Source: Escherichia coli phage KS_S14
Strand: one strand, 5' to 3'
Sequence record: LC788706.1
Length of the DNA stretch: 64,000 nt
Part shown: piece by piece, positions 10,451 to 39,662 of the stretch
How the letters are laid out: each line of letters begins with the position of its first letter
Position numbering within the stretch: position 1 is the stretch's first letter
Position numbers and translations under genes: made by a program
Notes under the pieces: model-generated
The model's input: only the letters and a program-made list of their open reading frames with translations
Told to the model about the DNA's origin: nothing
Database searches by the model: none

Positions 10451-10495
10451 GATTGACACTAAGTCAACTTACTAGCAAAAGCAAATAATGACAAA

Positions 10496-10529: not shown

Positions 10530-10544
10530 GTAATAAAATTTTAG

Positions 10545-10573
10545 TTGCATAGATGCCCAAACTTTTGTATAAT
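10545..10573 (+). promoter_or_regulatory. sigma70-type promoter (TTGCAT-17-TATAAT)
   Basis: Hexamers with 17-bp spacer upstream of ORF 10605. Confidence 0.5.
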
Positions 10574-10604
10574 ATACTCATAGATTGAGGCAATAGGATT
10601 AAAT

Positions 10605-22309: not shown

Positions 22310-23034
22310 TGAGTATAAAAAAGAATTTAGCAGAGATTATTAAGTTAGCTAGAGCTTGTAATGGAAAATGTGTTTCTCAGCTTAATGAACTAGAAGCACA
22401 TGCAGTAGCATTTTGTGCAGAGTTTTATCCTGCATACCTTAATGCTAGTGGGCAACCTAAATATAATAAGGATGCCGAAGAAGTTACGTTAGCTCCTTCA
22501 TATATTAGCTTGCGTCGTTTAATTCAAACCGTTGATCCTACTATTAAAGGATTCTCAGCAGATTCATTCCACGTCTTTGCAGATAAAGAACTCCCGTATT
22601 TTAAAGAAGGAAATGCAAAGTCATGTTTAGAATGTTATCCTAATATACTGATGATTCCTCAAAAGCAATGTAAATACGATCATCTTCCTAGACTTACAAA
22701 GAAAGTAGCACCACCTTATTCTTCTCTATCTGAATTAAAGCTAGGAATTGTATCTACACTTGCGCAGATTCATCTAAGTATAGTTGACGACTCAACAACA
22801 TCTAACCCTATTCTAGATGCTGCTCACTTTGAAATTTTACGTGATCCTGAACAAGCTAGAAAAGTTGCTAAGTCTGTTAAGTTTGATATATCAACAATTC
22901 TTGACACTAAACAAGAAACTAGACCTAGAGGAAGTGTAGATTATTCTGCGCTAAATTCCGAGTCATCTTACTTAGCAACATTCCTTTTCATGGCGTCAAA
23001 AGGGGTTATTCTAAAGGTTAATAAAGATGGATGA
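22309..23034 (+). CDS. hypothetical protein
   Basis: 241 aa ORF. Confidence 0.5.
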   Translation: MSIKKNLAEIIKLARACNGKCVSQLNELEAHAVAFCAEFYPAYLNASGQPKYNKDAEEVTLAPSYISLRRLIQTVDPTIKGFSADSFHVFADKELPYFKEGNAKSCLECYPNILMIPQKQCKYDHLPRLTKKVAPPYSSLSELKLGIVSTLAQIHLSIVDDSTTSNPILDAAHFEILRDPEQARKVAKSVKFDISTILDTKQETRPRGSVDYSALNSESSYLATFLFMASKGVILKVNKDG

Positions 23035-23755
23035 TTTACGTGCTGAAATTAATAAAAAGTTACGAGAGGAAGCCCGGAGGTTTCCTCTTAAAAACTTTTT
23101 GAAGTCAAATGGCTCTACTAATATAACGAAGATTAGGCAACTTCACCCTGACTTCCAACAAGAGGCCTTAAACCTTATCTTTATTAGGAAAGCTTTAAAA
23201 GTCCAGAAAGAAGAGTATGGGTATGAAAGAGTTAATTATAAGACAGCCAATCAGTTAGTAGAGATATGGTGCTATAAACATAAAGGATACTTTATGCAAA
23301 CTGCTAGATCTCACCTAGATGGGCACGGTTGTTTACAATGTGCTAGGGAAAGCAACCTAAATACACCTATCGAGAAACCGGAGGTAGAAGAAGATGTTCA
23401 GTCCCCCACATATCTCTATATCTTCTCTAATAAAGATCAGTCTAGGAAGAAATTAAAGACAAAGATTGGGGTTTCTAGAGAGCCACATCAAAGGTTTAAG
23501 AATCTAGAGTATGATAAATTGCGTGTGCCGGGTTTTGAAGATATGGAAGTATTTGGTATCTACCAGTATAAGAAAGGATCGAAAGAACTCGCTTACAAAA
23601 TAGAACACCAAGCACATAAATTTTTCGAGAATAAATTTGCTAACCATTATAAATTCGATGGAGCAAAAGAGATATTCAACATTAAAGCTGTAGAGGCAGA
23701 AGAATATCTATTAAGTCAAGGTTGCATAAAAATTTACCCAACTCCAAACTCATGA
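23027..23755 (+). CDS. zinc-ribbon plus T5orf172/GIY-YIG-like domain protein
   Basis: 242 aa; HxGxxxxxHLDGHGCLQC zinc-ribbon-like element and C-terminal YLYIF...KIGVS...EIF block. Confidence 0.5.
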   Translation: MDDLRAEINKKLREEARRFPLKNFLKSNGSTNITKIRQLHPDFQQEALNLIFIRKALKVQKEEYGYERVNYKTANQLVEIWCYKHKGYFMQTARSHLDGHGCLQCARESNLNTPIEKPEVEEDVQSPTYLYIFSNKDQSRKKLKTKIGVSREPHQRFKNLEYDKLRVPGFEDMEVFGIYQYKKGSKELAYKIEHQAHKFFENKFANHYKFDGAKEIFNIKAVEAEEYLLSQGCIKIYPTPNS

Positions 23756-23782
23756 CAAAAATTTAAAAGTAACGAAATCTGC

Positions 23783-23813
23783 TTGACATTCGTGAGAATA
23801 ATGTGTTATAATA
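23783..23813 (+). promoter_or_regulatory. sigma70-type promoter (TTGACA-19-TATAAT) facing the non-coding repeat field
   Basis: Perfect hexamers; no ORF for about 1.7 kb downstream. Confidence 0.45.
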
Positions 23814-24175
23814 ATCTCATAGATTAAAAACATCAACTTGTTTTTACCTCTAGGCCGTAGATTTACATCATTCCTCGTAGGAAAACACTTGATGACGGTT
23901 CTGTTCGCAGGTTCTCGTCAATTGTTCTTCCACACCGAGACTTAGGAGGATGTATCAAATCGCACGCGCCTAGAGGGGCTAACTCTCATGAAATGGGGGT
24001 ATATTAACTTTTAAATAACTGATAAATATTTAAAGGCAATATCTGTGTTCAAGATGATACACTTGTTGCCGCCCATCTGCTAGGATGGCACAACACTTTC
24101 TTCTAGACTCCTAAGTTTTTATGAAAACTCTAGTCAACTCAGGTGGTTTTCATGTTCCTAGAAACTTCAGCAATA

Positions 24176-24213
24176 GGCGGTTTAATACAGGGCGGTTATG
24201 GGGAGGGCGGTTA
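24176..24213. repeat. three direct copies of GGCGGTT(A/T)
   Basis: aggcggttt, gggcggtta, gggcggtta within 38 bp. Confidence 0.5.
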
Positions 24214-24256
24214 TTTCTAGGAGACATTTTTTGAAAACACATTTCCAGAAATTACT

Positions 24257-24856
24257 GTCGGATTTGCACACTGACATAGGTTTAAAAACTGGTCGGATTT
24301 GCACAATCGCCTAAGTTTTTAGGAACTCTTACTCTCCTGAAAATAGCAGCATTATTTCGGGCCGAAGGCCCGTGATTGCCTGAGTTTTTAGGGCCACAGA
24401 AATTTTCACTTGTCAAGCTATTTTGCCCCATTTTGCTAATAAAATTTTACTTTATCTGCACTTACCTCAAATTAACCCAAATCTTCTCAACTCTTCCCCA
24501 AAATCCCCGCAAATCAGGTGCTCCGCACCAAACATGCGCCCCTCTCGCAGTTCCCCCAAGTTTCTCTCGATCTCTCAACTTCTCCCCAAACCCATACAAT
24601 CACACACCATCTAATCGAAGTCACAAAAATCTTGTCGGATTCGCACAAATAAACCCATGTCGGATTTGCACATATTCTAGCTAATTCCACAGGATTCGAA
24701 CGCAGTTCGTGATTGCTGGAGTTTTTAGGAAAATTCATTGTCGGATTTGCACACTATAAAAATTTTTCGGGTCGGATTTGCACACTACCAAAAATTGTCG
24801 GATTCGCACATACACGCCCACGCGTAATCCATGGGGGCAAATGTCGGATTTGCACA
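24257..24856 (+). repeat. iteron-like array: 8 direct copies of GTCGGATT(T/C)GCACA
   Basis: Copies at 24257, 24292, 24634, 24659, 24740, 24771, 24797, 24843, same orientation, irregular spacing; several flanked by AGTTTTTAG motifs. Confidence 0.7.
24470..24600 (+). repeat. C-rich, G-poor strand-asymmetric tract
   Basis: About 130 bp with almost no G on the + strand. Confidence 0.45.
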
Positions 24857-24884
24857 AAAGCGCAGGGCAATTGCCCTGCTCGCC

Positions 24885-25070
24885 TGAATGCGAATGATAA
24901 TGAGAATAATTATCATTTAAGAAGTGGAATGCAAATGATAATTATTCTCATTTACGAAAGGGGGGTGAGAACTATTCAGGAAGTGAAACGATTCTCATTT
25001 AAAAAGTGAAATGATTATCGGTTAGACAGTGGAATGCGAATGATAATGATTCTCATTTAAGAATGGAAGT
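24885..25070. repeat. cluster of about 60-bp direct repeats each containing AATGAGAAT/ATTCTCATT palindromes
   Basis: ggaatgc(g/a)aatgataat three times; attctcattta four times; long AT-rich inverted repeats. Confidence 0.6.
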
Positions 25071-25090
25071 GAGAAACACTGTTATTTAAG

Positions 25091-25172
25091 TTATCAACAG
25101 ACTTATCAACAGCACGATTTGACTTGACAGAATCCTAGCCATTTTGAGGCGTTATTAACAGACTTATCCACA
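25091..25172 (+). promoter_or_regulatory. DnaA-box cluster
   Basis: TTATCAACA at 25091 and 25104; TTATCCACA at 25164. Confidence 0.5.
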
Positions 25173-25182
25173 GCTTATCCTA

Positions 25183-25198
25183 CTGTATATTTATACAG
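25183..25198. promoter_or_regulatory. SOS-box-like palindrome CTGTATATTTATACAG (left copy of inverted repeat)
   Basis: tactgtatatttatacagta resembles LexA consensus CTGT-N8-ACAG; partner at 28927. Confidence 0.4.
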
Positions 25199-25393
25199 TA
25201 TTCCTATGTAGTGAATAATTCTAATATAGGCCTAAAACGTCCTGAATCGCATTCTAACGCGTTTAATTTTGGTGGGGATACTAAAACAAGGGCAAAATTG
25301 GAGGAGGCTTGAAAATTAGTTAGCACGCTAACGATCACACAAGGCGACACGTAACACCCTAATCATTAGCAGGCTAACCATCGCGGGCGCGGT

Positions 25394-25416
25394 CAAATGA
25401 GAATGATTCTCATTTG
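25394..25416. repeat. 23-bp perfect palindrome CAAATGAGAATGATTCTCATTTG
   Basis: Perfect dyad; same core as the 24885-25070 repeats. Confidence 0.55.
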
Positions 25417-25566
25417 AAAATTGGGGGCACTCCCTGATAGTTGCGCCCCTTGATTATTATAGTAGTGGGCAACCGTTACGCTTTGCCCACTCCCCCCACT
25501 CATCTTGATGCCTAGACTTGCGACGGCGTACTAAAAACCGTTTATACCAGTGATTAAACCATCGTT

Positions 25567-25770
25567 TCATAAATCCTCCTCCGGTAGTCGGTGCGTGATC
25601 TTTTCCTCCTCTCCGTAGGAATCGACCAAATGTTGGTAGTAACCATCGTGATCATAAATCACTTTATCATACTCGCCACGCTCGACCGCTTGCCGGTTTT
25701 CCGGCGTATCGGGCACGTAAAAAACATCAACCATTGTACTAATTTTGGTTACAACAATTTTATTGCTCAT
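25567..25770 (-). CDS. hypothetical protein
   Basis: Start moved to second ATG with AGGGG RBS; last gene of minus-strand block. Confidence 0.4.
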   Translation of the reverse strand: MSNKIVVTKISTMVDVFYVPDTPENRQAVERGEYDKVIYDHDGYYQHLVDSYGEEEKITHRLPEEDL

Positions 25771-25870
25771 AATAACCCCTAGTAAATATATTTTTGCCAA
25801 TAGTGGCAAACGTTATCGCCACCAGCGGAATCATTTGCAGCCTCAACATTACCAGCGAAAATATATAATC

Positions 25871-26215
25871 TCATTGCGCCACCTTTCGAAACGCTGTTTC
25901 AATACTATCCGCAGTGGATTGAATATACGCTCCTTTCATTATCAGGCGCTCGGTACATACCTTACGGAAGATATTAATAAAATCATCTTCATTTTCTGCA
26001 ATTAATGCTTCACCCATAACCTGAACGTCGCAAGATGCAAAGGTCAAAAATTGAAACGCTAGTTCACGGGCAACGACCGCATTGATTTTATAATGCGCCT
26101 TGCCCTCATAAATATTAACAACGCCCTTGTAAGCTGGGGAAAGCTGATTTAAGTAATTTGCTAACAATGCAGGACGGCAATTAGCAACAAAACGATTGCC
26201 CTCATAAATAACCAT
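25871..26215 (-). CDS. hypothetical protein
   Basis: 114 aa ORF in minus-strand operon. Confidence 0.45.
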   Translation of the reverse strand: MVIYEGNRFVANCRPALLANYLNQLSPAYKGVVNIYEGKAHYKINAVVARELAFQFLTFASCDVQVMGEALIAENEDDFINIFRKVCTERLIMKGAYIQSTADSIETAFRKVAQ

Positions 26216-26338
26216 TTGACAGCCTCCCGATTAGATAGCCAGATAAAAGCATAAAAATCCCCAATGAAATGGGGTCATTTTTAAATAAGGTGGCGGTAAA
26301 ACCGCCAACCATTGCAAGGATAATAATGGTAACGCTTT

Positions 26339-26551
26339 TCATAGTACCCCACGAAACGCAGCGTAAAAGGTGGCAAAGTATTTAACCGTTTCAGCGATCA
26401 CGTTGCCGCGCTTATCAAATTTTTTCTCAGTAACACGAAAGGCATTTTTGTTACGTGCTACATATTCGATTTTACAATCTTCACGCTCGAACGTGTTAAC
26501 ATCCACCAGCTTAAAGCCTTTCGAACGTGCAAGGGAAACGTTACGAATCAT
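26339..26551 (-). CDS. hypothetical protein
   Basis: 70 aa ORF. Confidence 0.4.
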   Translation of the reverse strand: MIRNVSLARSKGFKLVDVNTFEREDCKIEYVARNKNAFRVTEKKFDKRGNVIAETVKYFATFYAAFRGVL

Positions 26552-26752
26552 TTTTATTCTCCTTTACCAGTCATGCAGCCCAGCAGATAAGAAAAAACGG
26601 CAATGCCAGCGCCGATAATAACAGCGTGAACGCCGAAAGCTATTGCAAATAACGATAAGATAGCGCCCAAGATACCCGCCAGAATAGCTCGAAAAATAAC
26701 CATTTGTAATACTCCCCTAGTTATCGGGGGATATAATATCCCCCGTTATTAA

Positions 26753-27016
26753 TTACATTAAAACAATTTTTGCAGCTTGTTTTTTGGTGCAATGTTCCGC
26801 CTTCAGGGTATCCAGCAAAAAGCCAGCCGTTTGCTGATCGATTTTATCGGCGTTATACAATTCTTGGATGGTGTTATAAGTTTTAGCAATGCCGTATTCT
26901 TGCACCATTTCGTGAATAATAACGCGGTTAGATACCCAGCCTTGAGCGGTGAACAGATGACTAGCAGAAGAATAAGCAACCATTTTAAGCCTCCAAATTT
27001 TTGGGAAAATTTTCAA
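26753..27016 (-). CDS. hypothetical protein
   Basis: 87 aa ORF. Confidence 0.4.
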   Translation of the reverse strand: MKIFPKIWRLKMVAYSSASHLFTAQGWVSNRVIIHEMVQEYGIAKTYNTIQELYNADKIDQQTAGFLLDTLKAEHCTKKQAAKIVLM

Positions 27017-27089
27017 CCGTCCTTAAACGGTGTAAAGGCATTATAACAAAAAAGGCCACCAATTATGGCGACCTTTACAAAACTTTACA

Positions 27090-27584
27090 TTAAACTACTT
27101 GTAATGTTTCAATATTGAAACATCGTTTCAATTCGTCATGCAAAACAGCATATTCCTCCCATCGGGTACTATCAGGAATATAAACAAGCTGTTTTAATCG
27201 GTTTGCATATATTACCGCTTTGTTATCGACTATCTCGACGCCACCATATTTAATAATTAATTTCATGACGGAATTAATAGGATCACCGCCGTTTACATAT
27301 GTGCCGGATTTACTTAGTTGATAATGATAAAGGCTTGCATATACGTTTTCATTCTCATACCATTCACCAGTTTCTTCGTCTTCGTAACCATCGCTACCAA
27401 AACGAGAAGCATTATCAATAGCCATTTCATGAGCGAAAGCGTCCAGATCCGTACCAGCAGGAACAAAATATTCCTCGGTGTTCCCTTCCCCGCAATAGCC
27501 AGTATGACAATCAACTAAAATGATCATATCATGTTTAGCCGTGCTCACTTCCCCTAGTGAGAAGCCGTATTTTTCTTCAGCCAT
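27090..27584 (-). CDS. hypothetical acidic protein
   Basis: 164 aa ORF with GGAGG RBS. Confidence 0.5.
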   Translation of the reverse strand: MAEEKYGFSLGEVSTAKHDMIILVDCHTGYCGEGNTEEYFVPAGTDLDAFAHEMAIDNASRFGSDGYEDEETGEWYENENVYASLYHYQLSKSGTYVNGGDPINSVMKLIIKYGGVEIVDNKAVIYANRLKQLVYIPDSTRWEEYAVLHDELKRCFNIETLQVV

Positions 27585-27649
27585 TAGTTAGCCTCCTATT
27601 AGTTAACAAGGGAATAGTAAAGTGGGGAAACAATCCCCACTAAATATTA

Positions 27650-28660
27650 TTACTCGCTTTCGATGTTAGTGGTGAAAGTAGAAATATCGATACCTTTTAC
27701 CATTTCATCAATCATTTCAGCGATGTTAAAACTTTGCACCATTTCCAGCATTGCCGCTTCCATAGCTGCGCCTGCTACCGCTTTCGCTTTCTGGTTATTC
27801 GGGGCGTACTGGTCAACCGCTACGCTCAGCAGGTTAGCAATAACTACCCGACCAATCGGCGTATCAATATAACCTTTGATCATGAATGGTGCTTTTTTAG
27901 CCGCTACTTTCGTAATTTGAGTTAATGCAATTTTGCCAGCTTCCAGTTTTGCAGCATTTACAACAGCGGATTTATTAGCGGCAACGATATTAGCGATCTT
28001 GGTCATGGTATTATTTCCTTTGTTTTCAGTAGTTTGAGTGTTAACGCTTTGAGTGTTAGAATTTACAGCATGTTTTTCCGTGTTGTCAATAGGCTGATCT
28101 TCCTCCTTCCAGAAAGAAAAGCCCGCGCTTTCAATATCCCCATCATATACATAAGGGTACACTTCCGACGGTAACAAAAAATTACCATCGCCATCAAAAG
28201 CCATTATAGCGGTATATTGAGACCCGTCGTTATCCGGCTTATGCCATCCAGCAGGTAAATACTTCCAGATAACATCTAAAAATCCCTCAATGCTAGAAAG
28301 TCCATTTATCAGATCAAGTCCAATAAGCTCAAAACCATTTATATTAAATGATTGACGGCCTGAATTGCTATGATATGCAACAATATTATTGCCCTGCGCA
28401 ATAATAAAATCGGCATCCGGCCCCGCTCCCCTACCTGTAAAGATATGGCAATCACGGTTATATAAAACAAGCGTTGCCCCTTGCTTATATAGTGGTAGAA
28501 AACTATCTATATCATAAGCGTCATAATCATCAAAAAAGTTTTGATGAATAGTTTCAGCCTTGTTAATAAAATGTTTAATGCTGGTTGACTTGCTACCATC
28601 CAGCAGGTTGCGCAATGCACCTTTTAAGACGGTTGCGTTATCTGGTTTATACAGCCTCAT
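27650..28660 (-). CDS. hypothetical protein (first gene of minus-strand block)
   Basis: 336 aa ORF with GAGGAGG RBS; Ala/Lys-rich C-terminal helical region. Confidence 0.55.
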   Translation of the reverse strand: MRLYKPDNATVLKGALRNLLDGSKSTSIKHFINKAETIHQNFFDDYDAYDIDSFLPLYKQGATLVLYNRDCHIFTGRGAGPDADFIIAQGNNIVAYHSNSGRQSFNINGFELIGLDLINGLSSIEGFLDVIWKYLPAGWHKPDNDGSQYTAIMAFDGDGNFLLPSEVYPYVYDGDIESAGFSFWKEEDQPIDNTEKHAVNSNTQSVNTQTTENKGNNTMTKIANIVAANKSAVVNAAKLEAGKIALTQITKVAAKKAPFMIKGYIDTPIGRVVIANLLSVAVDQYAPNNQKAKAVAGAAMEAAMLEMVQSFNIAEMIDEMVKGIDISTFTTNIESE

Positions 28661-28926
28661 TTGTTCGGCCTCCTCGTTAATCGGTGAGTGAATGATAAAG
28701 GTAATTTTCTAGCATAGGCAAATATTATTTTACCTTTTTATTTTCCTTGCCTAGCGTCTAATTTTATGCTAACCGCGCAGCGGTGTAATAAAGAGCAAAA
28801 CACGGCGAAGCCACCAGGCCGCAGCATTGAGGCTTTACTTTACTATTACCTTGCAGCGTTTAGCTCGTTAGAATGCGATTTAGGCCGCTTAAAATTGATT
28901 GCAGTTGTTAACACTACCTTTTTACC

Positions 28927-28966
28927 CTGTATATTTATACAGTGGAATAACCTGTGGATAAGTCTG
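28927..28966. repeat. right copy of about 40-bp inverted repeat with SOS-box-like palindrome and DnaA box
   Basis: Reverse complement of 28927-28966 matches 25159-25198 at about 34 of 40 positions. Confidence 0.55.
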
Positions 28967-29361
28967 TGCAAAAGTCCTTATATCGCCGCCTATCGTGTCA
29001 AGTTATTTCGTGCTGTGGATAACGTTGTGGATAACCTAAATGATAGTGCTTCTCACTTAGCTAGATGATTTCTTATAGTTATTATTTCTCATTAATTTAT
29101 ATGTATATTATATATCATGAAATAGTTAGTTAGCTAATGAGATTTTTCGTGATTAATAGTCTGCTAATAGTTTACTCGGTTACAGTCCACCAGCATGATT
29201 ATCATCCTAGCAATTATTATCCTGCTATCTTTCCGATGCATACTAACAAATAAAAGTCAATTAATTTATTTCATAAAATAAGTAGTTATCCACTGGAAAA
29301 TAAAAGTCAAGTGGATAACTAGGAAAATTTCATTTTTGCTTTTGGGGATAAGTTATCAACA
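28953..29361. promoter_or_regulatory. DnaA-box cluster in divergent control region
   Basis: TGTGGATAA at 28953, 29024, 29036; TTATCCAC at 29286; GTGGATAAC at 29311; TTATCAACA at 29353. Confidence 0.5.
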
Positions 29362-29766
29362 AGGCTAGAATGCACCTAAAACGCCCTAGAACGCGATGAA
29401 AGTTTTAGCCATGCCATTGCATTGCCTACCCTCGTTTATCGCTACCACGAGCTTTTTAGTTTTTGTCAAGTAGGGCAAGGCAAATATAAATGAAAAAATT
29501 ACTTGCCAACCTGCTGGGTTTTATGGTATTCGCGCGCCCGTTTCTTTTAATTTTAGGCCGTCGCCGCACGCCGTCCGGTGAGTTTTTGTCTTTACATTTC
29601 TTTACAAAAATAAGGTTGCGCCATTTTCGGGAATCCCCTATTATTTATCTCGTAGGGCGGCAATGACGAACTACACGGCGGGAAGTTTACCGCCACGCTC
29701 TTTAAAAATTGGGTACATCTTAAAGCCTATCGGCGGTAAACTTATACATTATAAGGAATCGACGAT

Positions 29767-29970
29767 ATGAAACAAACTTTATTGATCACTGGCAAGCCTA
29801 TTAAGGCACTAGATAGCAAAACAAAAAAATTGTTGACAGTAGCGCAAAGATCGGTAAAATACCGATTCACGCAGTACAAGAAAGGCCGCCAGCAAGGTTT
29901 AGAAATGATCTGGCGAAATATTATGATTGACTTGAAAGAAAATCATAAAAAACTGCAAAAAATTGTTTGA
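29767..29970 (+). CDS. hypothetical basic protein
   Basis: 67 aa; first ORF of + strand pre-early-like operon. Confidence 0.4.
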   Translation: MKQTLLITGKPIKALDSKTKKLLTVAQRSVKYRFTQYKKGRQQGLEMIWRNIMIDLKENHKKLQKIV

Positions 29971-30136
29971 CAATCTAGCCGATAGGTTTTAAGATGTACT
30001 CAGTTCGATAAGAGCGATAACTTGATAAAATTTGACGGTCGGTGCTTACCATAATGCATCCCGCCCCCTAACTGGGATATAGCGGCCTACGTGGAGTTCT
30101 TTAAATTGGTTAAACTGGCGAGCGGATTGTTACTTA

Positions 30137-30164
30137 TTACCTGCTAGTATTTTCTAGCAGGTAA
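30137..30164 (+). promoter_or_regulatory. intercistronic palindrome ttacctgctag/ctagcaggtaa
   Basis: 11-bp perfect arms with 6-nt AT loop between genes. Confidence 0.4.
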
Positions 30165-30200
30165 TGCGGAACAATCCCCAAATAACTAGGAGTTTATATT

Positions 30201-30452
30201 ATGCAAAACGTTATTACCGCGCCTAAAATTGGTCAATCCGTCTTTATTCCTTTCGTTACTAAAACGGATGAATTAACCGGAAAAGCCGAACGCATTAAAG
30301 GTGCGGCGCTTATGCCGTTCGATACAATCGACGCGGTATACGCTGAAACGGAACGCAGTAACAACGGCAAACCAGTTTTTAGCGTTCGCGTTAAATCCGG
30401 TGACGTTGTAAAGGTTGTTCAACGCAACGAAAAATGGGAAGCTGTTTTGTAA
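30201..30452 (+). CDS. hypothetical protein
   Basis: 83 aa ORF with AGGAG RBS. Confidence 0.45.
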   Translation: MQNVITAPKIGQSVFIPFVTKTDELTGKAERIKGAALMPFDTIDAVYAETERSNNGKPVFSVRVKSGDVVKVVQRNEKWEAVL

Positions 30453-30466
30453 TTTAGTGTTAACTT

Positions 30467-30494
30467 TATATTCCCCTGAAATATGGGGAATATA
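30467..30494 (+). promoter_or_regulatory. intercistronic palindrome tatattcccc/ggggaatata
   Basis: 10-bp perfect arms, 8-nt loop. Confidence 0.4.
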
Positions 30495-30553
30495 ACGATT
30501 AACATTAAGTTAATCATTAAATCCCTTAAATTAAACTAATAGGAGTTTTTACC

Positions 30554-30961
30554 ATGACTAACGCAAAAACCGCAAAATTCGCATGGAATGAAGAAAACAC
30601 TCAGAAAGCTGTTACCATGTATCAGCAGTTAATCAATGAAAACGGTTTAGATTTCGCAAATAGCGACGGTCTGAAAGAGATTGCGAAAGCAGTAGGCGCG
30701 GCCTCCCCCGTGTCAGTTCGCTCAAAATTGACCAGCGCGAAAGCATATCAAAAAAGCGATAAGCCGCGCAAAGTAGGCGGCGGTAGCTCTGTGCGTAAAG
30801 CTCATTATGTACGCGTTATCGCTAAACATGCTATTGATTCCGGCATTATCAAAGACGCCGACGATCTGGCAAGTCTGGAAAGTGCAAAACTTGAAACGCT
30901 GGACGCAGTAGCGCAACTGTTAGGCGTTGCCGATGAAGTAAAACAAGCCGCAGGCGAATAA
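30554..30961 (+). CDS. pre-early protein, possibly A2-like
   Basis: 135 aa; immediately upstream of the A1-like gene; assignment by position and size only. Confidence 0.35.
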   Translation: MTNAKTAKFAWNEENTQKAVTMYQQLINENGLDFANSDGLKEIAKAVGAASPVSVRSKLTSAKAYQKSDKPRKVGGGSSVRKAHYVRVIAKHAIDSGIIKDADDLASLESAKLETLDAVAQLLGVADEVKQAAGE

Positions 30962-30962
30962 T

Positions 30963-31006
30963 AGTTATATCTTGCCCCCTTTTAGTGAGGGGGCAATAAT
31001 ATAACT
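30963..31006 (+). promoter_or_regulatory. intercistronic GC-cored palindrome
   Basis: ttatatcttgccccc...gggggcaataatataa imperfect inverted repeat. Confidence 0.4.
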
Positions 31007-31051
31007 GTTTAGCGATAGTTATTTTCTTCCCTTAAATCAGGAGTTTTAAAA

Positions 31052-31249
31052 ATGGTTTTCTTCCCTACTGAATCATTAATTCTAGGCTTGTTTATTATGG
31101 CGGCCTCGTTATTGTTCGCTTATTTTCAAAATGATTTAGACTCATATTATTTTAAGCGTAAGTCTAAATTGGCAAAGCGTTTAGGTCTGATTTGTTTTAT
31201 TGCCGCCGTTGCTTGTGGTGTTAGTTCTAGCCTGATGCCTTTAAATTAA
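31052..31249 (+). CDS. small membrane protein
   Basis: 65 aa, two hydrophobic helices. Confidence 0.4.
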   Translation: MVFFPTESLILGLFIMAASLLFAYFQNDLDSYYFKRKSKLAKRLGLICFIAAVACGVSSSLMPLN

Positions 31250-31260
31250 TGTTGCAAATT

Positions 31261-31286
31261 ATAACGCCTATTATTCGAGGCGTTAT
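31261..31286 (+). promoter_or_regulatory. intercistronic palindrome ataacgcct/aggcgttat
   Basis: 9-bp arms, 8-nt loop. Confidence 0.4.
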
Positions 31287-31339
31287 ATTTGGCAATATTG
31301 CCGTTATTAATCTAATCCCTTTAATGGAGTTTTATTACT

Positions 31340-33010
31340 ATGATTATTTCCGCAGAAAAACAAACCGTTATCCTGAAAATGGCCGCTGACTTTAATTTCT
31401 ATGGTAAACGTCTGCGCGCTACTAAACTGGAAGTCTGCGACGATATATCAAAAGCGGTCTACGATACTACTAAACACTCCACCGCTATCTGCGACTGGCT
31501 GGAAGCAAATAAACCAGCTAAACCGAAAGCTGCAAAAGTAGCAAAAGCCATTAAAAACGATGAGCGCCCAGAAGCGGCGGGAATTGTTTCTAGTACGGTT
31601 GAGCAATGGGAAGTAAAACAGGGTAAACGCTTTATTATTACGTCGATTCAGAATAATACTTTCCCGCATAAAAACTTTTTGTCCTCGCTTGAACAATACG
31701 CTAAATATATCGGCGCTGATTTGCTTGTTTCTAAGTATATTTATAATAAAAACGGCTTCCAGAATGGAGAAGGTGCAGACGGTATCAAATACGATCCCGC
31801 ATTTGATAAATATATTTGCAGCAAAAACGTGTTTTTAAATAACCGCCGCTTTGCTTTCATGGCTGAAATTAATGTTTTGCCCACCGCAGATTATCCGCTT
31901 TCAGGATTCGCAGAAACTGCAACGGCTTTAAATATTGAAGGGCTGGCAATTGGTCATGCTAAAATTACCGCCGAAAGCGTGCCAGCTCTCAAAGGTGAGG
32001 TAGTGCGCCGCATGTATTCAACCGGAACGGCGACGTTAAAAAACTATATCCAGCAAAAAGCAGGGCAAAAAGCCGAGGCGCTGCATAACTTCGGCGCGCT
32101 GATTGTTGAGTTCGACGAGGACGGGGAATTTTTTGTTCGCCAGCTTGAAACAATGGATGAAAGCGGGGTGTTTTATGATCTGAACGTTTGCGCTACTCCT
32201 GCCGGATGTTATGAAACATCGGGACATGTTTTAGGCTTGCAATATGGCGACATCCACGCAGAAAAATTAGATGAGGAGTGCGCCGCCGCATCTTGGGGGC
32301 ATGGTGACACCTACGGGCTTGTGGATATTCTTAAACCAAAATATCAATTCGTCCATGACGTGCATGATTTTACATCACGCAACCATCACAACCGCGCATC
32401 CGGTGTATTCCTAGCAAAACAATACGCCGCCGGACGTGATAAGGTATTAGATGATCTTATCGATACGGGGCGCGTATTGGAATCAATGGAGCGCGATTTT
32501 TCTCAAACGATCATCGTAGAATCAAACCATGATTTAGCTTTATCCCGTTGGCTGGATGATCGTAACGCCAACATTAAAGACGACCCTGCAAACGCGGAAC
32601 TATATCACCGCCTGAATGCCGCTATTTACGCCGCAATCGGTGAGCATGATGAAACGTTTAACGTGCTTGATTATGCGCTGCGCAAAGTTGCAGGTTGTGA
32701 GTTTAACGCCATTTTCCTAACGACTGACCAGTCTTTCAAGATTGCAGGCATTGAATGCGGCGTACACGGTCACAATGGCATTAACGGCAGCCGTGGCAAT
32801 CCTAAACAATTTAAGAAATTGGGCAAGTTAAACACGGGGCATACGCATACCGCCAGCATTTACGGCGGTGTATATACCGCTGGCGTGACTGGTAGTCTGG
32901 ACATGGGTTACAACGTTGGCGCGTCTAGCTGGACTCAAACGCATATTATTACCTATGCAAACGGTCAACGCACTTTGATTGACTTTAAGAATGGTAAATT
33001 CTTTGCGTAA
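31340..33010 (+). CDS. A1: A1-like pre-early protein, calcineurin-like metallophosphoesterase (putative nuclease)
   Basis: 556 aa, the size recalled for T5 A1; motifs GDIHAEK, HDVHD, ESNHD, GHNGINGSRGN, GHTHT. Confidence 0.6.
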   Translation: MIISAEKQTVILKMAADFNFYGKRLRATKLEVCDDISKAVYDTTKHSTAICDWLEANKPAKPKAAKVAKAIKNDERPEAAGIVSSTVEQWEVKQGKRFIITSIQNNTFPHKNFLSSLEQYAKYIGADLLVSKYIYNKNGFQNGEGADGIKYDPAFDKYICSKNVFLNNRRFAFMAEINVLPTADYPLSGFAETATALNIEGLAIGHAKITAESVPALKGEVVRRMYSTGTATLKNYIQQKAGQKAEALHNFGALIVEFDEDGEFFVRQLETMDESGVFYDLNVCATPAGCYETSGHVLGLQYGDIHAEKLDEECAAASWGHGDTYGLVDILKPKYQFVHDVHDFTSRNHHNRASGVFLAKQYAAGRDKVLDDLIDTGRVLESMERDFSQTIIVESNHDLALSRWLDDRNANIKDDPANAELYHRLNAAIYAAIGEHDETFNVLDYALRKVAGCEFNAIFLTTDQSFKIAGIECGVHGHNGINGSRGNPKQFKKLGKLNTGHTHTASIYGGVYTAGVTGSLDMGYNVGASSWTQTHIITYANGQRTLIDFKNGKFFA

Positions 33011-33024
33011 TTAAATTATTCCCC

Positions 33025-33048
33025 TAGCGGCTTGAAATATAGCCGCTA
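33025..33048 (+). promoter_or_regulatory. intercistronic palindrome tagcggct/agccgcta
   Basis: 8-bp arms, 8-nt loop tgaaatat. Confidence 0.4.
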
Positions 33049-33064
33049 TTACAGGAGTCAAAAA

Positions 33065-33322
33065 ATGAAAGTTATTCTACCCAAAACACTAGACGAAAAA
33101 GCATTTATTTCCCCCGATGAAATGGAATCAAATAAAGTTTACAGCTTCGGGCCTATCCTAGCCGTCAAAACTGATACGGATGGCATTATTTCCATTGATT
33201 ATCGTGATAATGATGTTGTTCCTTTTGATGACGATAGCGCTTTTTATGAGTGGTTAAGCGATAATAATTTACCCGTAAATGGTGAATTAACGCCGTATCA
33301 AATGCAGATTATTATCAAATAA
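33065..33322 (+). CDS. hypothetical protein
   Basis: Start at second ATG with AGGAG RBS. Confidence 0.4.
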   Translation: MKVILPKTLDEKAFISPDEMESNKVYSFGPILAVKTDTDGIISIDYRDNDVVPFDDDSAFYEWLSDNNLPVNGELTPYQMQIIIK

Positions 33323-33360
33323 TTTAAATCCTTTATTAAACTAACTGGAGTTTTATAAAT

Positions 33361-33753
33361 ATGAAAAAGCAAAATATTCCATTCGATCGCGCTCAGTCTT
33401 CTATTGTTCTGGTTTATTCTAATGGTGAACGTTACCACGTCGAGGCGGGGCACGTTATTGATGATCTATTAGATTTCAATGACGCTTTACAGGTTACTAC
33501 CTTTGCCTATACGCAAGGCCGCGCAAGTAGTTACATTAAGGCCGCAGGCGTTTATGTTGATACGGTGAAACAAGAAACGATTATCATCGACGCCGTAAAA
33601 TCCGGTCTAGCCTTTGCGGTTGTCGCGCCTTGCCCCGCTTGCCTTGATGATCAATTGATTTCTGCAAAAGTATATACTTGTGCTGGGATTCGTTCCCATG
33701 TATCAGGTGAGGATGTTAGTTTTATTGCCGATGCGTTGGCTTATGGTCTTTAA
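33361..33753 (+). CDS. hypothetical protein
   Basis: 130 aa ORF with GGAG RBS. Confidence 0.45.
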   Translation: MKKQNIPFDRAQSSIVLVYSNGERYHVEAGHVIDDLLDFNDALQVTTFAYTQGRASSYIKAAGVYVDTVKQETIIIDAVKSGLAFAVVAPCPACLDDQLISAKVYTCAGIRSHVSGEDVSFIADALAYGL

Positions 33754-33766
33754 TAGTTGATTTATT

Positions 33767-33793
33767 ATTGCCCGCTGATAAATAGCGGGCAAT
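33767..33793 (+). promoter_or_regulatory. intercistronic palindrome attgcccgct/agcgggcaat
   Basis: 10-bp arms, 7-nt loop. Confidence 0.4.
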
Positions 33794-33832
33794 GCTGGAT
33801 AAACTAAATCCCTTTAATGGAGAACGTAACAA

Positions 33833-34567
33833 ATGAATAAAGCTATTATGAATATTTCCCGCAGCTTCCCGCATATTTCCCGCGTCATGATTTGGGATTT
33901 AGACGGCACTATCATTAATTCTTTCCACCGCGTAGCGCCTTGCTTTGATAGCGAGGGCAATTTAGATTTAAATAAGTATAAAAATGAAGCGTGTAAACAT
34001 CATTTAATAATGCAGGATACATTATTACCATTAGTTGAATACATGCGCCAGTGCATGAACGACGCAAATACTTTAAACATTATTTGTACCGCTCGACTAA
34101 TGAGCAAGTCGGACTATTATTATTTGCGTAAACAAGGGTTGCGCGGTCGTGGGGATAGTAATATCCGCGTTTTTTCCCGTGATACACTACACAAATATTT
34201 TGAGGCTGATAAAGTTAGCGAGATATACCACAGTAAGGACGCAGTTTATAAATCTTATTATTTTGAATTATTTAAACAGTTATATCCGAACGCTGATTTT
34301 ACAATGATTGATGATCATAAAGGTGTATTATCAGCGGCGGCATCATACGGATTTAAAACGCTGGACGCGCAAGCCGTTAACGATATTCTATCAATCGGCG
34401 TGGCATTAATAGGTGAAACCTTTATTGATGAATCCCTCGATGATGATAATGATTATCAATTCCTAGCCGACCGTTTAAAATTATGTTGGGAAGGTATGAC
34501 CGAGGAAGAACGCGCAGAATATAGTTGCAGCCCGCAACAATATATTGAGAAATTAAAAGTTGCGTAA
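33833..34567 (+). CDS. dmp: HAD-superfamily 5'-deoxyribonucleotidase (Dmp-like)
   Basis: 244 aa; N-terminal IWDLDGTI (DxDGT HAD motif); size recalled for T5 Dmp. Confidence 0.55.
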   Translation: MNKAIMNISRSFPHISRVMIWDLDGTIINSFHRVAPCFDSEGNLDLNKYKNEACKHHLIMQDTLLPLVEYMRQCMNDANTLNIICTARLMSKSDYYYLRKQGLRGRGDSNIRVFSRDTLHKYFEADKVSEIYHSKDAVYKSYYFELFKQLYPNADFTMIDDHKGVLSAAASYGFKTLDAQAVNDILSIGVALIGETFIDESLDDDNDYQFLADRLKLCWEGMTEEERAEYSCSPQQYIEKLKVA

Positions 34568-34584
34568 TAATTAAAGTTGAAACT

Positions 34585-34621
34585 GTTTCATCCTGTAATT
34601 AAAATGGTTGCAGGATGAAAC
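34585..34621 (+). promoter_or_regulatory. palindrome gtttcatcctg/caggatgaaac after last operon gene
   Basis: 11-bp arms; possible bidirectional terminator between convergent units. Confidence 0.4.
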
Positions 34622-34731
34622 AATTACCCTGCTAATAGTAACGGGAGTGGCGGTTAGCAGACTAAGTATTCTCCCCCAACCCACTGGGCACACCTCCATG
34701 TGTAATCTTATGAAATTTGGCAAAAGTCAAA

Positions 34732-34977
34732 TTAGCGCATAGAAGGGTCATCAAACCTGTATTCTGGTCTGAACTCACGGAATCTCTTCCGCGACGCCCG
34801 AGATCCATCCGACCACTCCCGCTCAAACTCCGCACGTTTCTCGTCAAACTTCCGCTCCCTTTCCGCAATCTCCCTCGTCACTCCCGCAATATATTTACGA
34901 TGCTTATTGATTGCCGCAGTCGTCCCGAAAACTCCCGCGAGTATCCCGATAATAAAAGCAATTATAATACTAAACAT
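34732..34977 (-). CDS. small membrane protein with charged C-terminal tail
   Basis: 81 aa; N-terminal TM helix; last gene of overlapping minus-strand cluster. Confidence 0.4.
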   Translation of the reverse strand: MFSIIIAFIIGILAGVFGTTAAINKHRKYIAGVTREIAERERKFDEKRAEFEREWSDGSRASRKRFREFRPEYRFDDPSMR

Positions 34978-35164
34978 CTAATTCCCTCTCAATTTGCAGA
35001 ATACGAGTGCTATCACAACGTTGCAGTAGTACTAGCTTTTCTAGAATAACTTGTTGTTGTTTCACTTGGGCTTCTAGAGTTTTTAGGCGGAGATACACGA
35101 CACGAGAGACAATAAGGATTACCCAGACTAATATTACTATTAGTGTAACTGCCACTTCCATCAT
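34970..35164 (-). CDS. small membrane protein with coiled-coil tail
   Basis: 64 aa; start overlaps upstream stop. Confidence 0.35.
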   Translation of the reverse strand: MMEVAVTLIVILVWVILIVSRVVYLRLKTLEAQVKQQQVILEKLVLLQRCDSTRILQIERELDV

Positions 35165-35267
35165 TTACGTTTCTCCGACAGTAGGGTTTCAATTCTAGCT
35201 AAGTGATTATCTAAAATACATTGACCAATAATCACAACCCCCAGTAGTGCAATAATTACCCATTCCA
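35160..35267 (-). CDS. very small membrane protein (35 aa)
   Basis: ATG overlapping stop of upstream ORF; hydrophobic; hand-found. Confidence 0.25.
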
Positions 35268-35395
35268 TTATATCCACCCCGCCATAGCTGCTAACCAAAA
35301 ACCTACGAAAATAAAGAATAGGATAGTTCCGAACCCAAAACTATTTATCCAACTCTCATACACCTCTCCGCGTCTATTCTTTCTTTTGTTTGACA
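35267..35395 (-). CDS. small membrane protein (42 aa)
   Basis: ATG with AGGAG RBS; basic N-terminus then hydrophobic helix; hand-found. Confidence 0.3.
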
Positions 35396-35572
35396 TATCT
35401 TTCATGCTCCTATAAGTGTGGTATTTGAAATATTCTATAACTTGTGCACAACCAACCGTGCCTATGAACTCCTAGAAGGACTTCTACTTTTCTTATATAG
35501 TGTTTTCTGCCAGTATACCGTCCAAGAAATAAAAAATTTAGTTTACTTGGATGTCTTTTTGTTTTATACTAA

Positions 35573-35839
35573 TTACAGGTAATTAGATTGCTCTAGTTTA
35601 AATTTACAATCACCGTATTTAAGGTCAAACTGACTGAGATCCCACCACCCAAACTTAGTACGGAGCTGTACTACTGGAAAGCGATCTCCCTTAATACGAA
35701 CTTTTTGAACCTTGAGGCCGTAATGTTCCTCTCCCGCACCACCAAAAGATTTTACAAATCCCATACAAAATGGTTTGGGGGCAGGTGCACAACCAGATAA
35801 CATAACTGTGGCAACTAGTGCAATCACAAACTTTTTCAT
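35573..35839 (-). CDS. lipoprotein, Llp-like (possible receptor-blocking lytic-conversion protein)
   Basis: 88 aa; signal peptide with lipobox LSGC; divergent from receptor-binding-protein candidate. Confidence 0.45.
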   Translation of the reverse strand: MKKFVIALVATVMLSGCAPAPKPFCMGFVKSFGGAGEEHYGLKVQKVRIKGDRFPVVQLRTKFGWWDLSQFDLKYGDCKFKLEQSNYL

Positions 35840-35924
35840 ATTTATCTCTCCATTTCTAATTTATGAATCTATTATAGCAAAATAGAGAGATGAAAGCAAA
35901 TACATTTTTATAATAGGAGATTAT

Positions 35925-37682
35925 ATGGGTTTTTTCGCTGGAAAGTATAGCGATGGTAAGACCGTACTATCTTTAAATACTGAATCTGGTGGTGACATTA
36001 ATCGTCACTATAGTCCAAGTAATAATAGTATTTTTCATAGTGATATGCCATTTGTTCTAGTTGATGGTACTTATGAGGCAGGATTAGGTGATGCCGGGAA
36101 TGGGTTTTTCGTATGTCAGATGCCTCCTGATATAGTAAATATTAAATCTAATGATCCTGGTAGAGTTATACTAACTGCTATTGAGATTAATGGTACTCAC
36201 AGAGCTTTTCTTAATGGTACTCAGAGTAAAGTTGGTCAAACTATAGTTGCCACTCAAGCAGACCCCTTTAGATCTTTTGCTAGTGTTTCTCAAACCAGTG
36301 GATTTGCATTTGGTAATAGTCTAGCATCTGGAACTTATAATTATAACCCATCGATAGGGCACGAAGAATCTATTTCTAGGAGTGGTACAGGTGGTACTAC
36401 GTTACATAGTACCTACCATGGGATAGTTAGGCCTGGTGCGGGAGCTCCTGTAGGTGTTACTGTTGCAGAAGCCTTTGCACAGTTAGGTTTTCCTACTAAT
36501 AGTAGCACAGTACCTGTAGATGGGAATAACCCGTATTATTGGGATCCTGGATGGATGTCGCCTCTAGGAGCAGCACATAGAGGGCATGATTGGTTTTATG
36601 TTTGCAACTCTAATATACGTGGATACGGTGGGGTTAGACAAGGGCTCCCAGGTAATGTAAATACTATGTACCACGACGGTGGGAACAGATTTGTTTGTAG
36701 GGGATCTACTACTAATTTAGCTAACCAGTCGGGTGACTCTACAATACTACAGGATTGGTATAATATAACCCCTACTAAGGTTATTTGGTATGTTCTTAAT
36801 TTAAGGTACTCTAATGGTGGAATGAGTATTTCAGGCAACCCCTTTACTGGTTCTGATATTCTTATATCTCCTTCTAATTTCATAATTAAAGGGGTAAGTC
36901 TCCCTAATACCGGGTATAAATTTATAAATCAGAATGCTTTTGGTAACCTAGGTTACCGTCCTGATATGGAGTATATAGGAAATAACGCAGCGTATACCGG
37001 GGTTTTTGGGGATACCACGGCAAGGTGTGAACTTGTAGGGTCTAGTAATGGAGGATTATGGTCTCCTGTAGACTATGGTGGAGCTAAATCCCAAATTAGC
37101 ATTTACAAATTCGGAGCTGGTAAGCAATGGTATGTAAACTCTAGGGATAATACTATCGGTAATGAACACGGGGTTGTTTGGGGACCATCAGCAGTTCCAT
37201 TACGACTTTTTGGTGGAAATGTAGGTAGCTCTTACATGGGGGATGATATTACTCCCAGCTACCCGGGAACAGGGGATAGATACGTTGGTTTATCAACTAT
37301 TGGGCTAGGTATACCGGGTGGCAATGCTACAGTAATTCTTACCACTGAAGTTATATCAGGTAACCTTAACTGTGCAGGTGTTCCTGCTAATACATGGAAT
37401 AACGGTGTGTTTCAAGTGCAAGGAAGAAGAGCATATAGCTATAGTAATGGAGATGCAATATTCCACCAGATTTTAACATTACCAGTAGGGTATTTAGTAC
37501 CTTTTCATACTACATCTGCTTTTAGATACACACCTAACAATGCCCTAAGTAGAAATAGTTTTATATACACTGCTAAAAATCTGGGGAATGGAAATGTAGA
37601 GTTAGGGGTAGTTATGCACGTAAGTTTAGGTAGTGCAGTTTTCCTACCGAGATTAAGAGTAACAGTTCAACGCCTTACCTAA
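35925..37682 (+). CDS. receptor-binding tail protein candidate (pb5/Oad-like)
   Basis: 585 aa; Gly/Asn/Ser-rich; adjacent to lipoprotein and terminal-repeat-like region; N-terminus MGFFAGK resembles recalled pb5 start. Confidence 0.45.
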
Positions 37683-37692
37683 AGGAGGAAAT

Positions 37693-38175
37693 ATGGCAAA
37701 TGATGTATTAGTACCAGATCTTATGTCCCCTGAAGGGATGGATGTAATTGAAGCATATTTACAGTGTGGCAGCGATGTGCCTTCTGCCGCACGTAGTCTT
37801 GGGATGTCCGAAATTGCTTTTCGAGATATTATGAATCGTAGTGAAGTTAAGAACTACTTAAATGATATTTTTATGGAGAGTGGTTTCCGTAACAGAGATC
37901 GTTTATTTGGTGTTCTGGATGAAGTTATCAAGCGTAAACTAGAGGAACTAGAAGAAACTGGCATGGGTTCTGACCAAGATATTATGGATATTCTCTGGAA
38001 AGCACATAAAATGAAAATGGAAGAAATGAAAATGATGGTAGAACTGGAGAAAGTGAAGGCAGCAGCCCGTACTCCAGCTAACCAGACCAACATCCAGAAT
38101 AATATTATTGCTGGAGCTGGGGATCAAAACTACATGGACTTAATTACTTCCCTAGCTACTGGAGGTAAGAAGTAA
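37693..38175 (+). CDS. terminase small subunit candidate
   Basis: 160 aa directly upstream of large terminase; HTH-like N-terminus. Confidence 0.5.
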
Positions 38176-39491
38176 TGGAAGTATCAAGACCTTACGTTAA
38201 TACAGTAGATGTTATTGATTTCGGAATAGATAAACGTTTCTTTCGTCTACCTGTTTCGGGAATACTAGCACAAGAAGGTATTACACCTAATGGTCCTCAA
38301 ATAGCGATTATTAATGCTCTAGAGGATCCTAGACATCGTTTTGTAACGGCGTGTGTATCACGCCGTGTAGGTAAATCCTTCATCGCATATACTCTTGGGT
38401 TCCTAAAATTGCTGGAACCTAATGTGAAGGTGTTAGTAGTTGCTCCTAACTATTCACTGGCCAACATCGGATGGTCTCAGATTCGTGGTCTTATTAAAAA
38501 ATATGGCCTACAAACTGAACGTGAGAACGCTAAAGATAAGGAAATTGAGTTAGCTAATGGTTCTCTGTTTAAACTAGCTTCCGCTGCTCAGGCTGACTCC
38601 GCAGTTGGACGTTCATATGATTTTATCATCTTTGACGAGGCGGCAATTTCCGATGTGGGTGGTGATGCCTTCAGGGTTCAGCTGCGTCCTACTCTAGATA
38701 AACCTAATTCTAAGGCTCTATTTATTTCCACACCTCGTGGAGGTAACTGGTTTAAAGAGTTTTACGCCTACGGATTTGATGATACGTTGCCTAACTGGGT
38801 ATCTATTCATGGTACATATCGTGATAACCCTCGTGCTGACCTGAATGATATAGAAGAAGCACGTCGTACGGTTAGTAAAAACTACTTCCGCCAGGAATAT
38901 GAAGCTGACTTCTCTGTATTTGAAGGTCAGATTTTTGATACTTTCAATGCTATTGACCATGTTAAAGACCTTAAGGGTATGCGTCATTTCTTTAAAGATG
39001 ATGAAGCATTCGAAACGTTGCTTGGTATCGACGTTGGTTATCGTGATCCTACAGCAGTTCTTACTATTAAGTATCATTACGATACGGATACTTACTATGT
39101 ATTAGAAGAGTATCAGCAGGCGGAGAAAACTACAGCTCAGCATGCTGCTTACATTCAGCACTGTATAGATCGTTATAAAGTTGATCGTATTTTTGTTGAC
39201 TCCGCGGCAGCTCAGTTCCGTCAAGACTTAGCTTATGAGCATGAAATTGCATCAGCTCCAGCTAAAAAATCTGTCCTAGATGGCCTAGCATGCCTGCAAG
39301 CACTGTTCCAACAGGGTAAGATTATTGTAGATGCCTCATGCTCCTCCTTAATTCATGCACTGCAGAACTATAAGTGGGACTTCCAAGAAGGTGAAGAGAA
39401 ATTATCACGTGAAAAACCACGTCATGATGCTAATTCTCACCTTTGTGATGCGCTGCGCTATGGAATTTACTCTATTTCCCGTGGTAAATAA
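38175..39491 (+). CDS. terminase large subunit
   Basis: 438 aa; Walker A-like RRVGKS, Walker B-like DFIIFDEAA, C-terminal nuclease-like region. Confidence 0.75.
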   Translation: MEVSRPYVNTVDVIDFGIDKRFFRLPVSGILAQEGITPNGPQIAIINALEDPRHRFVTACVSRRVGKSFIAYTLGFLKLLEPNVKVLVVAPNYSLANIGWSQIRGLIKKYGLQTERENAKDKEIELANGSLFKLASAAQADSAVGRSYDFIIFDEAAISDVGGDAFRVQLRPTLDKPNSKALFISTPRGGNWFKEFYAYGFDDTLPNWVSIHGTYRDNPRADLNDIEEARRTVSKNYFRQEYEADFSVFEGQIFDTFNAIDHVKDLKGMRHFFKDDEAFETLLGIDVGYRDPTAVLTIKYHYDTDTYYVLEEYQQAEKTTAQHAAYIQHCIDRYKVDRIFVDSAAAQFRQDLAYEHEIASAPAKKSVLDGLACLQALFQQGKIIVDASCSSLIHALQNYKWDFQEGEEKLSREKPRHDANSHLCDALRYGIYSISRGK

Positions 39492-39662
39492 ATAAATATA
39501 GGATGGGATACTACTCAGTTGGTATCCCATTCCTGTATTTTAAAATCCCCTTTACAAATTCGATACGATTATGTATACTATATTCATTGATCGGGAGAAC
39601 TTCTCCCATAATAGAACGTAAACAAGAAAAATTAATGCTCTACATGGGGTGTAGGAGATTCT

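Follow-up and report, generated by a model that had tools for sequence, protein, structure and literature searches.

Organization of the Locus and Its Relation to T5

The window considered here is the whole analyzed stretch of 64,000 nucleotides from Escherichia coli phage KS_S14 (sequence record LC788706.1), and attention is focused on its middle segment, in which pre-early genes of the T5 type stand between early and late genes. The gene order is the one described in the initial annotation, namely tRNA and early genes, then pre-early-type genes, then late genes: 14 tRNA genes and a series of early open reading frames (ORFs) are followed by A2, A1 and dmp and by the late genes, and most of the long ORFs are on the + strand. 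Using megablast, 508 phage records were matched by the segment 23000-37000, nearly all of them belonging to Tequintavirus or Epseptimavirus (T5-like phages), with Escherichia phage DaisyDussoix as the top match (92.7% identity, 98% of the query). Judging by homology, the window is a Tequintavirus genome written in the orientation reverse to that of T5.

The whole window was compared by blastn with four stretches of T5 (AY543070) and proved to be reverse-colinear with it. Positions 392-24390 correspond to T5 34627-10220 and positions 34691-64000 to T5 111531-80504, so that T5 coordinates jump by 101.3 kb across the middle segment. This segment (24391-34690) is the only part of the window that has two matches in T5: its positions 24393-34676 align in blocks both to T5 10219-15 and to T5 121748-111546, and these blocks have a nucleotide identity of 82-91%.

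DaisyDussoix (MZ501058, BASEL Bas31, 113,532 bp), the closest relative, has an identical layout, in which the early genes are followed by a single copy of the repeat, the small ORFs, the superinfection-exclusion lipoprotein and the receptor-binding protein; its GenBank record is likewise permuted and contains the repeat once. However, DaisyDussoix is a different isolate with about 7% divergence, and its record is cut just past the receptor-binding gene, whereas the window continues into the terminase genes.

Terminal Repeat and Its Boundaries

From these alignments, the segment 24391-34690 is recognized as the long direct terminal repeat of Tequintavirus, of the T5 type, which has a length of 10,300 bp and is present in one copy. 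The repeat annotations used as references were those of T5, with the left terminal repeat (LTR) at 1-10219 and the right terminal repeat (RTR) at 111532-121750, of vB_EcoS_MM-1 (PV577657; repeats of 10,407 bp) and of vB_SalS-SIA3lw (PP094244; repeat of 9,916 bp), below called MM-1 and SIA3lw. By blastn, the repeat is about 92% identical to that of MM-1. No second copy of it, even a partial one, was found elsewhere in the window, and no long direct repeats were found in the region. T5 has two copies of a repeat of 10,219 bp, while the window contains one copy of 10,300 bp.

Both virion ends are predicted from homology to the records with annotated ends (T5, MM-1, SIA3lw and SPC35, HQ406778), all of which have their physical ends at positions aligned with the boundaries predicted here. 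In alignment A1, T5 and MM-1 with their right physical ends and SIA3lw with its corresponding end begin in one and the same column, which is position 24391 of the window, and the sequences of the first two phages on the inner side of the LTR continue through this boundary, T5 10220 being aligned to 24390. At the other side, T5 position 1 is aligned to 34690 and the boundaries of MM-1 and SIA3lw to 34689, and the RTR-inner sequences continue into 34691 and onwards (alignment A2); accordingly, the blastn alignment is unbroken across the T5 RTR boundary (window 33313-35437 against T5 112911-110785). When further record ends were mapped by blastn, SPC35 gave 34689 (its position 1) and 24391, and the right end of phiR201 gave 24391. 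The sequences at both boundaries are the same as in T5, and they coincide with the ends of records having determined termini, with the exception of chee24.

The DNA adjoining the left side of the repeat in the window (23756-24390, 635 bp) matches T5 at 10220-10608 only, i.e., from the first base after the LTR. In a database-wide count, 442 records contained it, at 462 places in total (about one per record), and the A1 gene was found at 517 places in 441 records. Because of its position past the LTR in T5 and about one place per record, this DNA is unique and does not belong to the repeat. The limits 24391-34690 follow from the alignment of record ends at both boundaries and from the uniqueness of this left flank. 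The interval 23756-35925 (12.2 kb), to which content of the repeat type had been initially ascribed, indeed contains the repeat, but this occupies only 10,300 bp, and the portions 23756-24390 and 34691-35924 are unique. The predicted ends and the predicted nick, which had been expected somewhere within 23.8-35.9 kb, are all inside that range and can now be given as single positions (Table 1).

Table 1. Features of the window, their positions, strands and the basis of assignment (a caret marks a cut or a nick).
Feature	Position	Strand	Basis and remarks
Terminal repeat	24391-34690	− (T5 orientation)	Genome left end at 34690; inner LTR end, equal to genome right end, at 24391; aligns to T5 LTR and RTR and to MM-1 LTR and RTR
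Predicted virion right terminus and LTR/unique junction	24390^24391 (24385-24396)		TTTTTAG^GGCCACAG, longer context TTTTTAG^GGCCACAGAAATTTTCAC; homology to record ends
Predicted virion left terminus and unique/RTR junction	34689/34690^34691 (34684-34696)		CCCACTGGGC(A)^CACCTCC; homology to record ends
Predicted terminal single-strand nick	24859^24860 (24859-24867)	+	A^GCGCAGGG; homology to T5 nick
Second copy of nick motif	12174-12182	+	A^GCGCAGGG; in dnk homologue 11993-12745; corresponds to T5 major nick 22336/22337
DRD repeats of Repeat Region 3	24256-24856	+	Eight direct copies of TGTCGGATT(T/C)GCACA; straddle the repeat boundary
IRD'-spacer-IRC' arm of injection-stop region	25067-25213		Two pairs of DnaA/DnaA-like boxes 3 bp apart, 25091/25103 and 25152/25164; layout as in Davison
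IRC-spacer-IRD arm (Repeat Region 2)	28912-29058		DnaA boxes 28953, 29014 and 29026 on − strand; 29014/29026 form a pair 3 bp apart
Pre-early ORF block	25567-28660	− (rightward in T5 orientation)	blastn to T5 6098-8747; PHROGs
T5.012 to T5.015 homologues	within 25567-28660 (T5.015, 25871-26215)	−	
Extra ORF, 164 aa	27090-27584	−	phrog_6741; also in MM-1, SIA3lw and DaisyDussoix
T5.011 homologue	27650-28660	−	Pfam DUF7566, 6e-114
Core pre-early operon	30201-34567	+	Same order as T5 annotation; blastn to T5 15-5419
T5.007 homologue	30201-30452	+	
A2	30554-30961	+	PHROG 8.3e-52
T5.005 homologue	31052-31249	+	
A1	31340-33010	+	PHROG 1.5e-245
Two small ORFs	between A1 and dmp	+	
dmp	33833-34567	+	PHROG 2.8e-57
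tRNA genes (14)	398-6894		
Early ORFs	up to 23755		Between tRNA region and repeat-side DNA
Unique untranslated DNA	23756-24390		Predicted just inside the left terminal repeat in virion; T5 10220-10608 match
Unique DNA predicted to precede right repeat in virion	34691-35924	−	About 1.2 kb between repeat and receptor-binding gene
Four small membrane-protein ORFs	34732-35405	−	T5.162 to T5.159 homologues
Cor/Llp-like lipoprotein gene	35573-35839	−	phrog_1119, LPAM_1 lipobox
Receptor-binding tail protein, 585 aa	35925-37682	+	phrog_4815, 2.3e-273; opens late module
Terminase small subunit (terS)	37693-38175	+	PHROG and Pfam
Terminase large subunit	38175-39491	+	PHROG and Pfam

Two candidates for a signal at the ends were rejected. 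A motif shared by both cut sites was sought by local alignment of ±100 nt in both orientations, and the scores of 16 and 17 were indistinguishable from those of shuffled sequences (16.4 ± 2.1 and 16.6 ± 2.3, respectively). A CCACWG element situated near both ends of the repeat of the window was dropped, as it is not kept in T5 (alignment A2).

Genes and Injection-Stop Region of the Repeat

The gene content of the segment is that of the T5 repeats (AY543070/NC_005859), with the same order dmp, T5.002, T5.003, A1, T5.005, A2 and T5.007, and then T5.011 to T5.015. From the outer (left) end at 34690 inwards, dmp, A1 and A2 are met in that order, which was stated by Davison (10.1101/866236) as a criterion for a repeat of the T5 type. 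Unlike T5, the repeat of the window is devoid of the hegG HNH gene and has the extra ORF of 164 aa, and its content differs from that of T5 also at 29058-29256.

A large untranslated injection-stop (iss) region with T5-like architecture is located at the inner end of the repeat. Such a region at the inner repeat end was described by Davison for 25 T5-like phages, and, as in the T5 repeats, it includes DRD, the IRD'/IRC' inverted repeats and paired DnaA boxes. Where chance would give 0.07 matches to the DRD pattern, nine are present in the window, and eight of the nine are in the array of Repeat Region 3, which was also recovered by a search for repeats (families D1, D2 and D7). Two of these copies, at 24256 and 24291, are outside the repeat, in unique DNA, and represent the "overrun" of Repeat Region 3; T5 has nine DRD copies, and its Repeat Region 3 extends 270 bp past the LTR (Davison). 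The two arms listed in Table 1 pair with each other as an inverted repeat of 147 nt. More than half of the matches to the DnaA pattern TTATYMACA (7 of the 13 in the window) fall in these two blocks, and an eighth box, TTTTGCACA (28965-28973, − strand), was read by eye.

Repeat Region 3 contains three copies of a motif of 22 nt, CGTGATTGCCTGAGTTTTTAGG (24302-24323, 24371-24392 and 24708-24729), the middle one of which ends precisely at the predicted cut of the right terminus (TTTTTAG^GG).

The site of the T5 "major DNA single-chain interruption" (9748/9749) maps to the junction of positions 24859 and 24860, and 60 nt of the context are identical in both phages (CACAAAA^GCGCAGGGC). The final DRD copy stops 3 nt short of this site, which is 469 nt from the right end of the repeat and 9,831 nt from the left one. 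There are just two copies of the motif AGCGCAGGG in the whole window, at 24859 and 12174. A sequence of the type 5'-Pu^GCGC, as nicked in T5-type repeats some 0.5 kb away from their inner end, is conserved here, and nicking at it is predicted. A literature search on the T5 nicking enzyme yielded nothing usable, and no Rfam families were found in 22000-38000 at E ≤ 0.1.

Several AT-rich palindromes of the iss region (24896-24914, 24932-24953, 25037-25058 and 25394-25416) resemble the Fur box of E. coli, and a perfect inverted repeat of 20 nt is formed by 24899-24918 and 24933-24952. The first palindrome, GATAATGAGAATAATTATC, has two mismatches to the 19-mer Fur consensus GATAATGATAATCATTATC; the others are weaker, with at least five mismatches, and the remaining matches in the window are in the coding sequence of dmp. 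A mention of Fur was not found in the Davison preprint. Since only one site has as few as two mismatches and the others are weak, no Fur boxes are claimed here.

Predicted Structure of the Virion Genome and Probable Origin of the One-Copy Form

In our opinion, with a probability of about 90%, the segment is a T5-type terminal repeat present once, and the sequence is written in a circular form with one repeat. This reading, which had been put forward in the initial annotation as a circular assembly with collapsed repeats, is supported by the fact that one copy of 10,300 bp bears both unique flanks: the left flank corresponds to T5 10220-10608, the DNA on the inner side of the LTR, and the right flank to T5 111531-110785, the DNA on the inner side of the RTR. 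On this basis, we infer that virions of the phage would carry two copies with exactly these ends and that the one-copy form probably arose during assembly.

The linear virion DNA would then start at 34690 and proceed leftwards, passing dmp, A1, A2 and the injection-stop region, as far as 24391, where the LTR would end, and the DNA of the first-step transfer would extend to about the nick. Further, the molecule would pass from 24390 down to 1, through the early and tRNA regions, and then through the rest of the genome. It would re-enter the window at 64000 and go down the late genes (tail, head, terminase and receptor-binding protein), the lipoprotein gene and the small ORFs to 34691, and the second copy of the repeat, from 34690 to 24391, would close it at the right end.

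Because two identical repeats of 10.3 kb cannot be separated by short-read assemblers, the copies would be merged, the unique flanks would be joined via one copy, and the start of the sequence would be arbitrary. According to Davison (bioRxiv 10.1101/866236), large repeats make assembly software misplace dmp, A1 and A2, and many GenBank records of T5-like phages show these genes "in the late region". For phages with direct terminal repeats (DTRs), it is known that assemblers merge the repeats and choose a random start, and a twofold depth is predicted between the termini, with peaks of read starts and read ends at the limits of the repeat (PhageTerm, PMC5557969). The exact repeats of the T7 type are similar in this respect, one copy being located between successive unique regions at a concatemer junction. 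However, the T7 repeat is non-coding and has 160 bp, whereas that of T5, about 10 kb long, includes both the injection-stop signal and the coding sequences of pre-early genes.

Related records containing A1 were sampled at even intervals; two copies were present in nine of them, all with lengths of 117.8-123.5 kb. Another 49 full-length records of 101.7-115.5 kb had one copy, with A1 at arbitrary coordinates. About five-sixths of the related GenBank records have been deposited in the one-copy form. The records of MM-1, SIA3lw and SPC35 are written as linear and contain two copies (116.5-118.4 kb), unlike the window, in which the repeat is collapsed. The single-copy layout is a known, already described assembly convention and not a new biological feature.

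The same junction with one copy may, however, be real in the sequenced material, if this was DNA of replicating circles or concatemers from infected cells or a metagenome and no merging by an assembler took place. Intracellular circles of T5 observed by electron microscopy are shorter than the genome by one repeat, and the one-copy junction is physically present in replicating T5 circles and concatemers. The second copy is thought to be regenerated during packaging by terminase-linked processing; for T5, it has been proposed, though no more than that, that the repeats originate from concatemers and are duplicated as these are packaged (PMC8108384). DNA of this kind would give a sequence identical to that observed, so that assembly collapse and a natural one-repeat circle or concatemer are indistinguishable from the sequence. 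Nevertheless, phages are mostly sequenced from virion DNA, and the same layout is routinely produced by assemblers and is shown by most related GenBank records, which makes a replicative source quite unlikely. Such a source would be compatible with the identification of the repeat and would differ only in the origin of the sequence.

As to the collapsed terminal repeat itself, several observations weigh against the boundaries given above and would be explained if this phage had T5-type repeats with its own boundaries, situated tens to hundreds of bases away from the boundaries of T5, MM-1 and SPC35. By blastn, the ends of chee24, the sole outlier, map to 34582 and 24597, which is 107 and 206 nt inwards of the boundaries predicted here, the right end of Stitch maps to 24386, within 5 nt of the predicted right end, and the left ends of Stitch and phiR201 are not aligned to the last base. 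Repeat lengths vary from 9.6 to 10.4 kb among the records, and one substitution is situated right at the right-end cut site, in the second base inside the end (GGGCCAC here against GAGCCAC in the references; alignment A1). Displaced boundaries are, however, very improbable: the right end at 24391 is common to five records and the left end at 34689/34690 to four, despite identities of 72-92%, both sites have highly conserved surroundings in the window, and the terminase shares 96% identity with its T5 counterpart. The repeat of chee24 (MF431730), annotated with a length of 9,968 bp, sits inside the limits common to T5, MM-1, SIA3lw and SPC35, and its offset suggests that the limits of repeats in some deposited records are approximate. 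A genome without a terminal repeat, in which the pre-early block was truly moved between the early and late genes or which is circularly permuted through headful packaging, would agree with the bare gene order in the window and nothing more, and its probability is extremely low. The flanks match the LTR-inner and RTR-inner junctions of T5 to the base, and all related records of full virion length in the sample have two copies. Moreover, the terminase is of the T5 type, the terminase region (37666-41110) being 96.5% identical to T5 108443-105000. T5 is a DTR phage with fixed ends, and both of its end sequences are kept in the window, which argues against a headful-packaged permuted genome.

For practical purposes, it is advisable to regard the sequence as that of a linear genome which exceeds the one-repeat form by about 10.3 kb and has its ends at 34690 and 24391. 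In the virion, the pre-early genes would not be placed between the early and late modules. This has a bearing on annotation, comparison of genome lengths and synteny, restriction mapping and the design of edits; such design and other downstream uses are affected because every pre-early gene would be diploid in the virion. The practical gain of the present analysis consists in refined coordinates.

DNA Adjoining the Repeat

On the early side, a perfect sigma-70 promoter was found at 23783-23812 (+), with TTGACA, a spacer of 18 nt containing TG (extended −10) and TATAAT (12/12). It is situated just past the last early ORF, and transcription from it would cross the boundary of the repeat and enter the untranslated DRD array with the nick site; no plausible ORF is present downstream. 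The 635 bp around it are covered by at least 80% in 118 related records; the promoter, although conserved in many relatives, is lacking in T5, whose alignment starts only at 24048. In the virion, such an arrangement of promoter and boundary would exist only beside the left repeat, or else at a concatemer junction, and a junction-specific non-coding transcript could be imagined for this reason. Alternatively, the promoter and the DRD straddling the boundary might mark a site recognized by the T5 terminase or by the machinery of repeat duplication. That the inner boundary is in either of these ways more than a passive cut site seems to us unlikely, and we mention it as a tentative idea.

The stretch 22309-24047, adjoining the repeat boundary, is absent from T5 and contains two ORFs of 241 and 242 aa. 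The latter (23027-23755) has a T5orf172/homing-endonuclease-like domain (Pfam PF10544, 4e-6; phrog_681, 1e-22), and the whole stretch has the appearance of an insertion of a mobile endonuclease at that edge of the early region which is nearest to the LTR.

On the late side, the repeat is followed by about 1.2 kb of small ORFs and the lipoprotein gene, so the pre-early content does not directly precede the late module, as had been initially assumed. The late module was also said to begin with the terminase; position 35925 is in fact the start of the receptor-binding tail protein gene, and the terminase genes start at 37693 and 38175. The lipoprotein and receptor-binding genes (region 35438-37665) have no DNA alignment to T5 llp and oad and match those of MM-1, SIA3lw and DaisyDussoix. 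This implies that the receptor module of the phage probably differs from that of T5, which is specific to FhuA.

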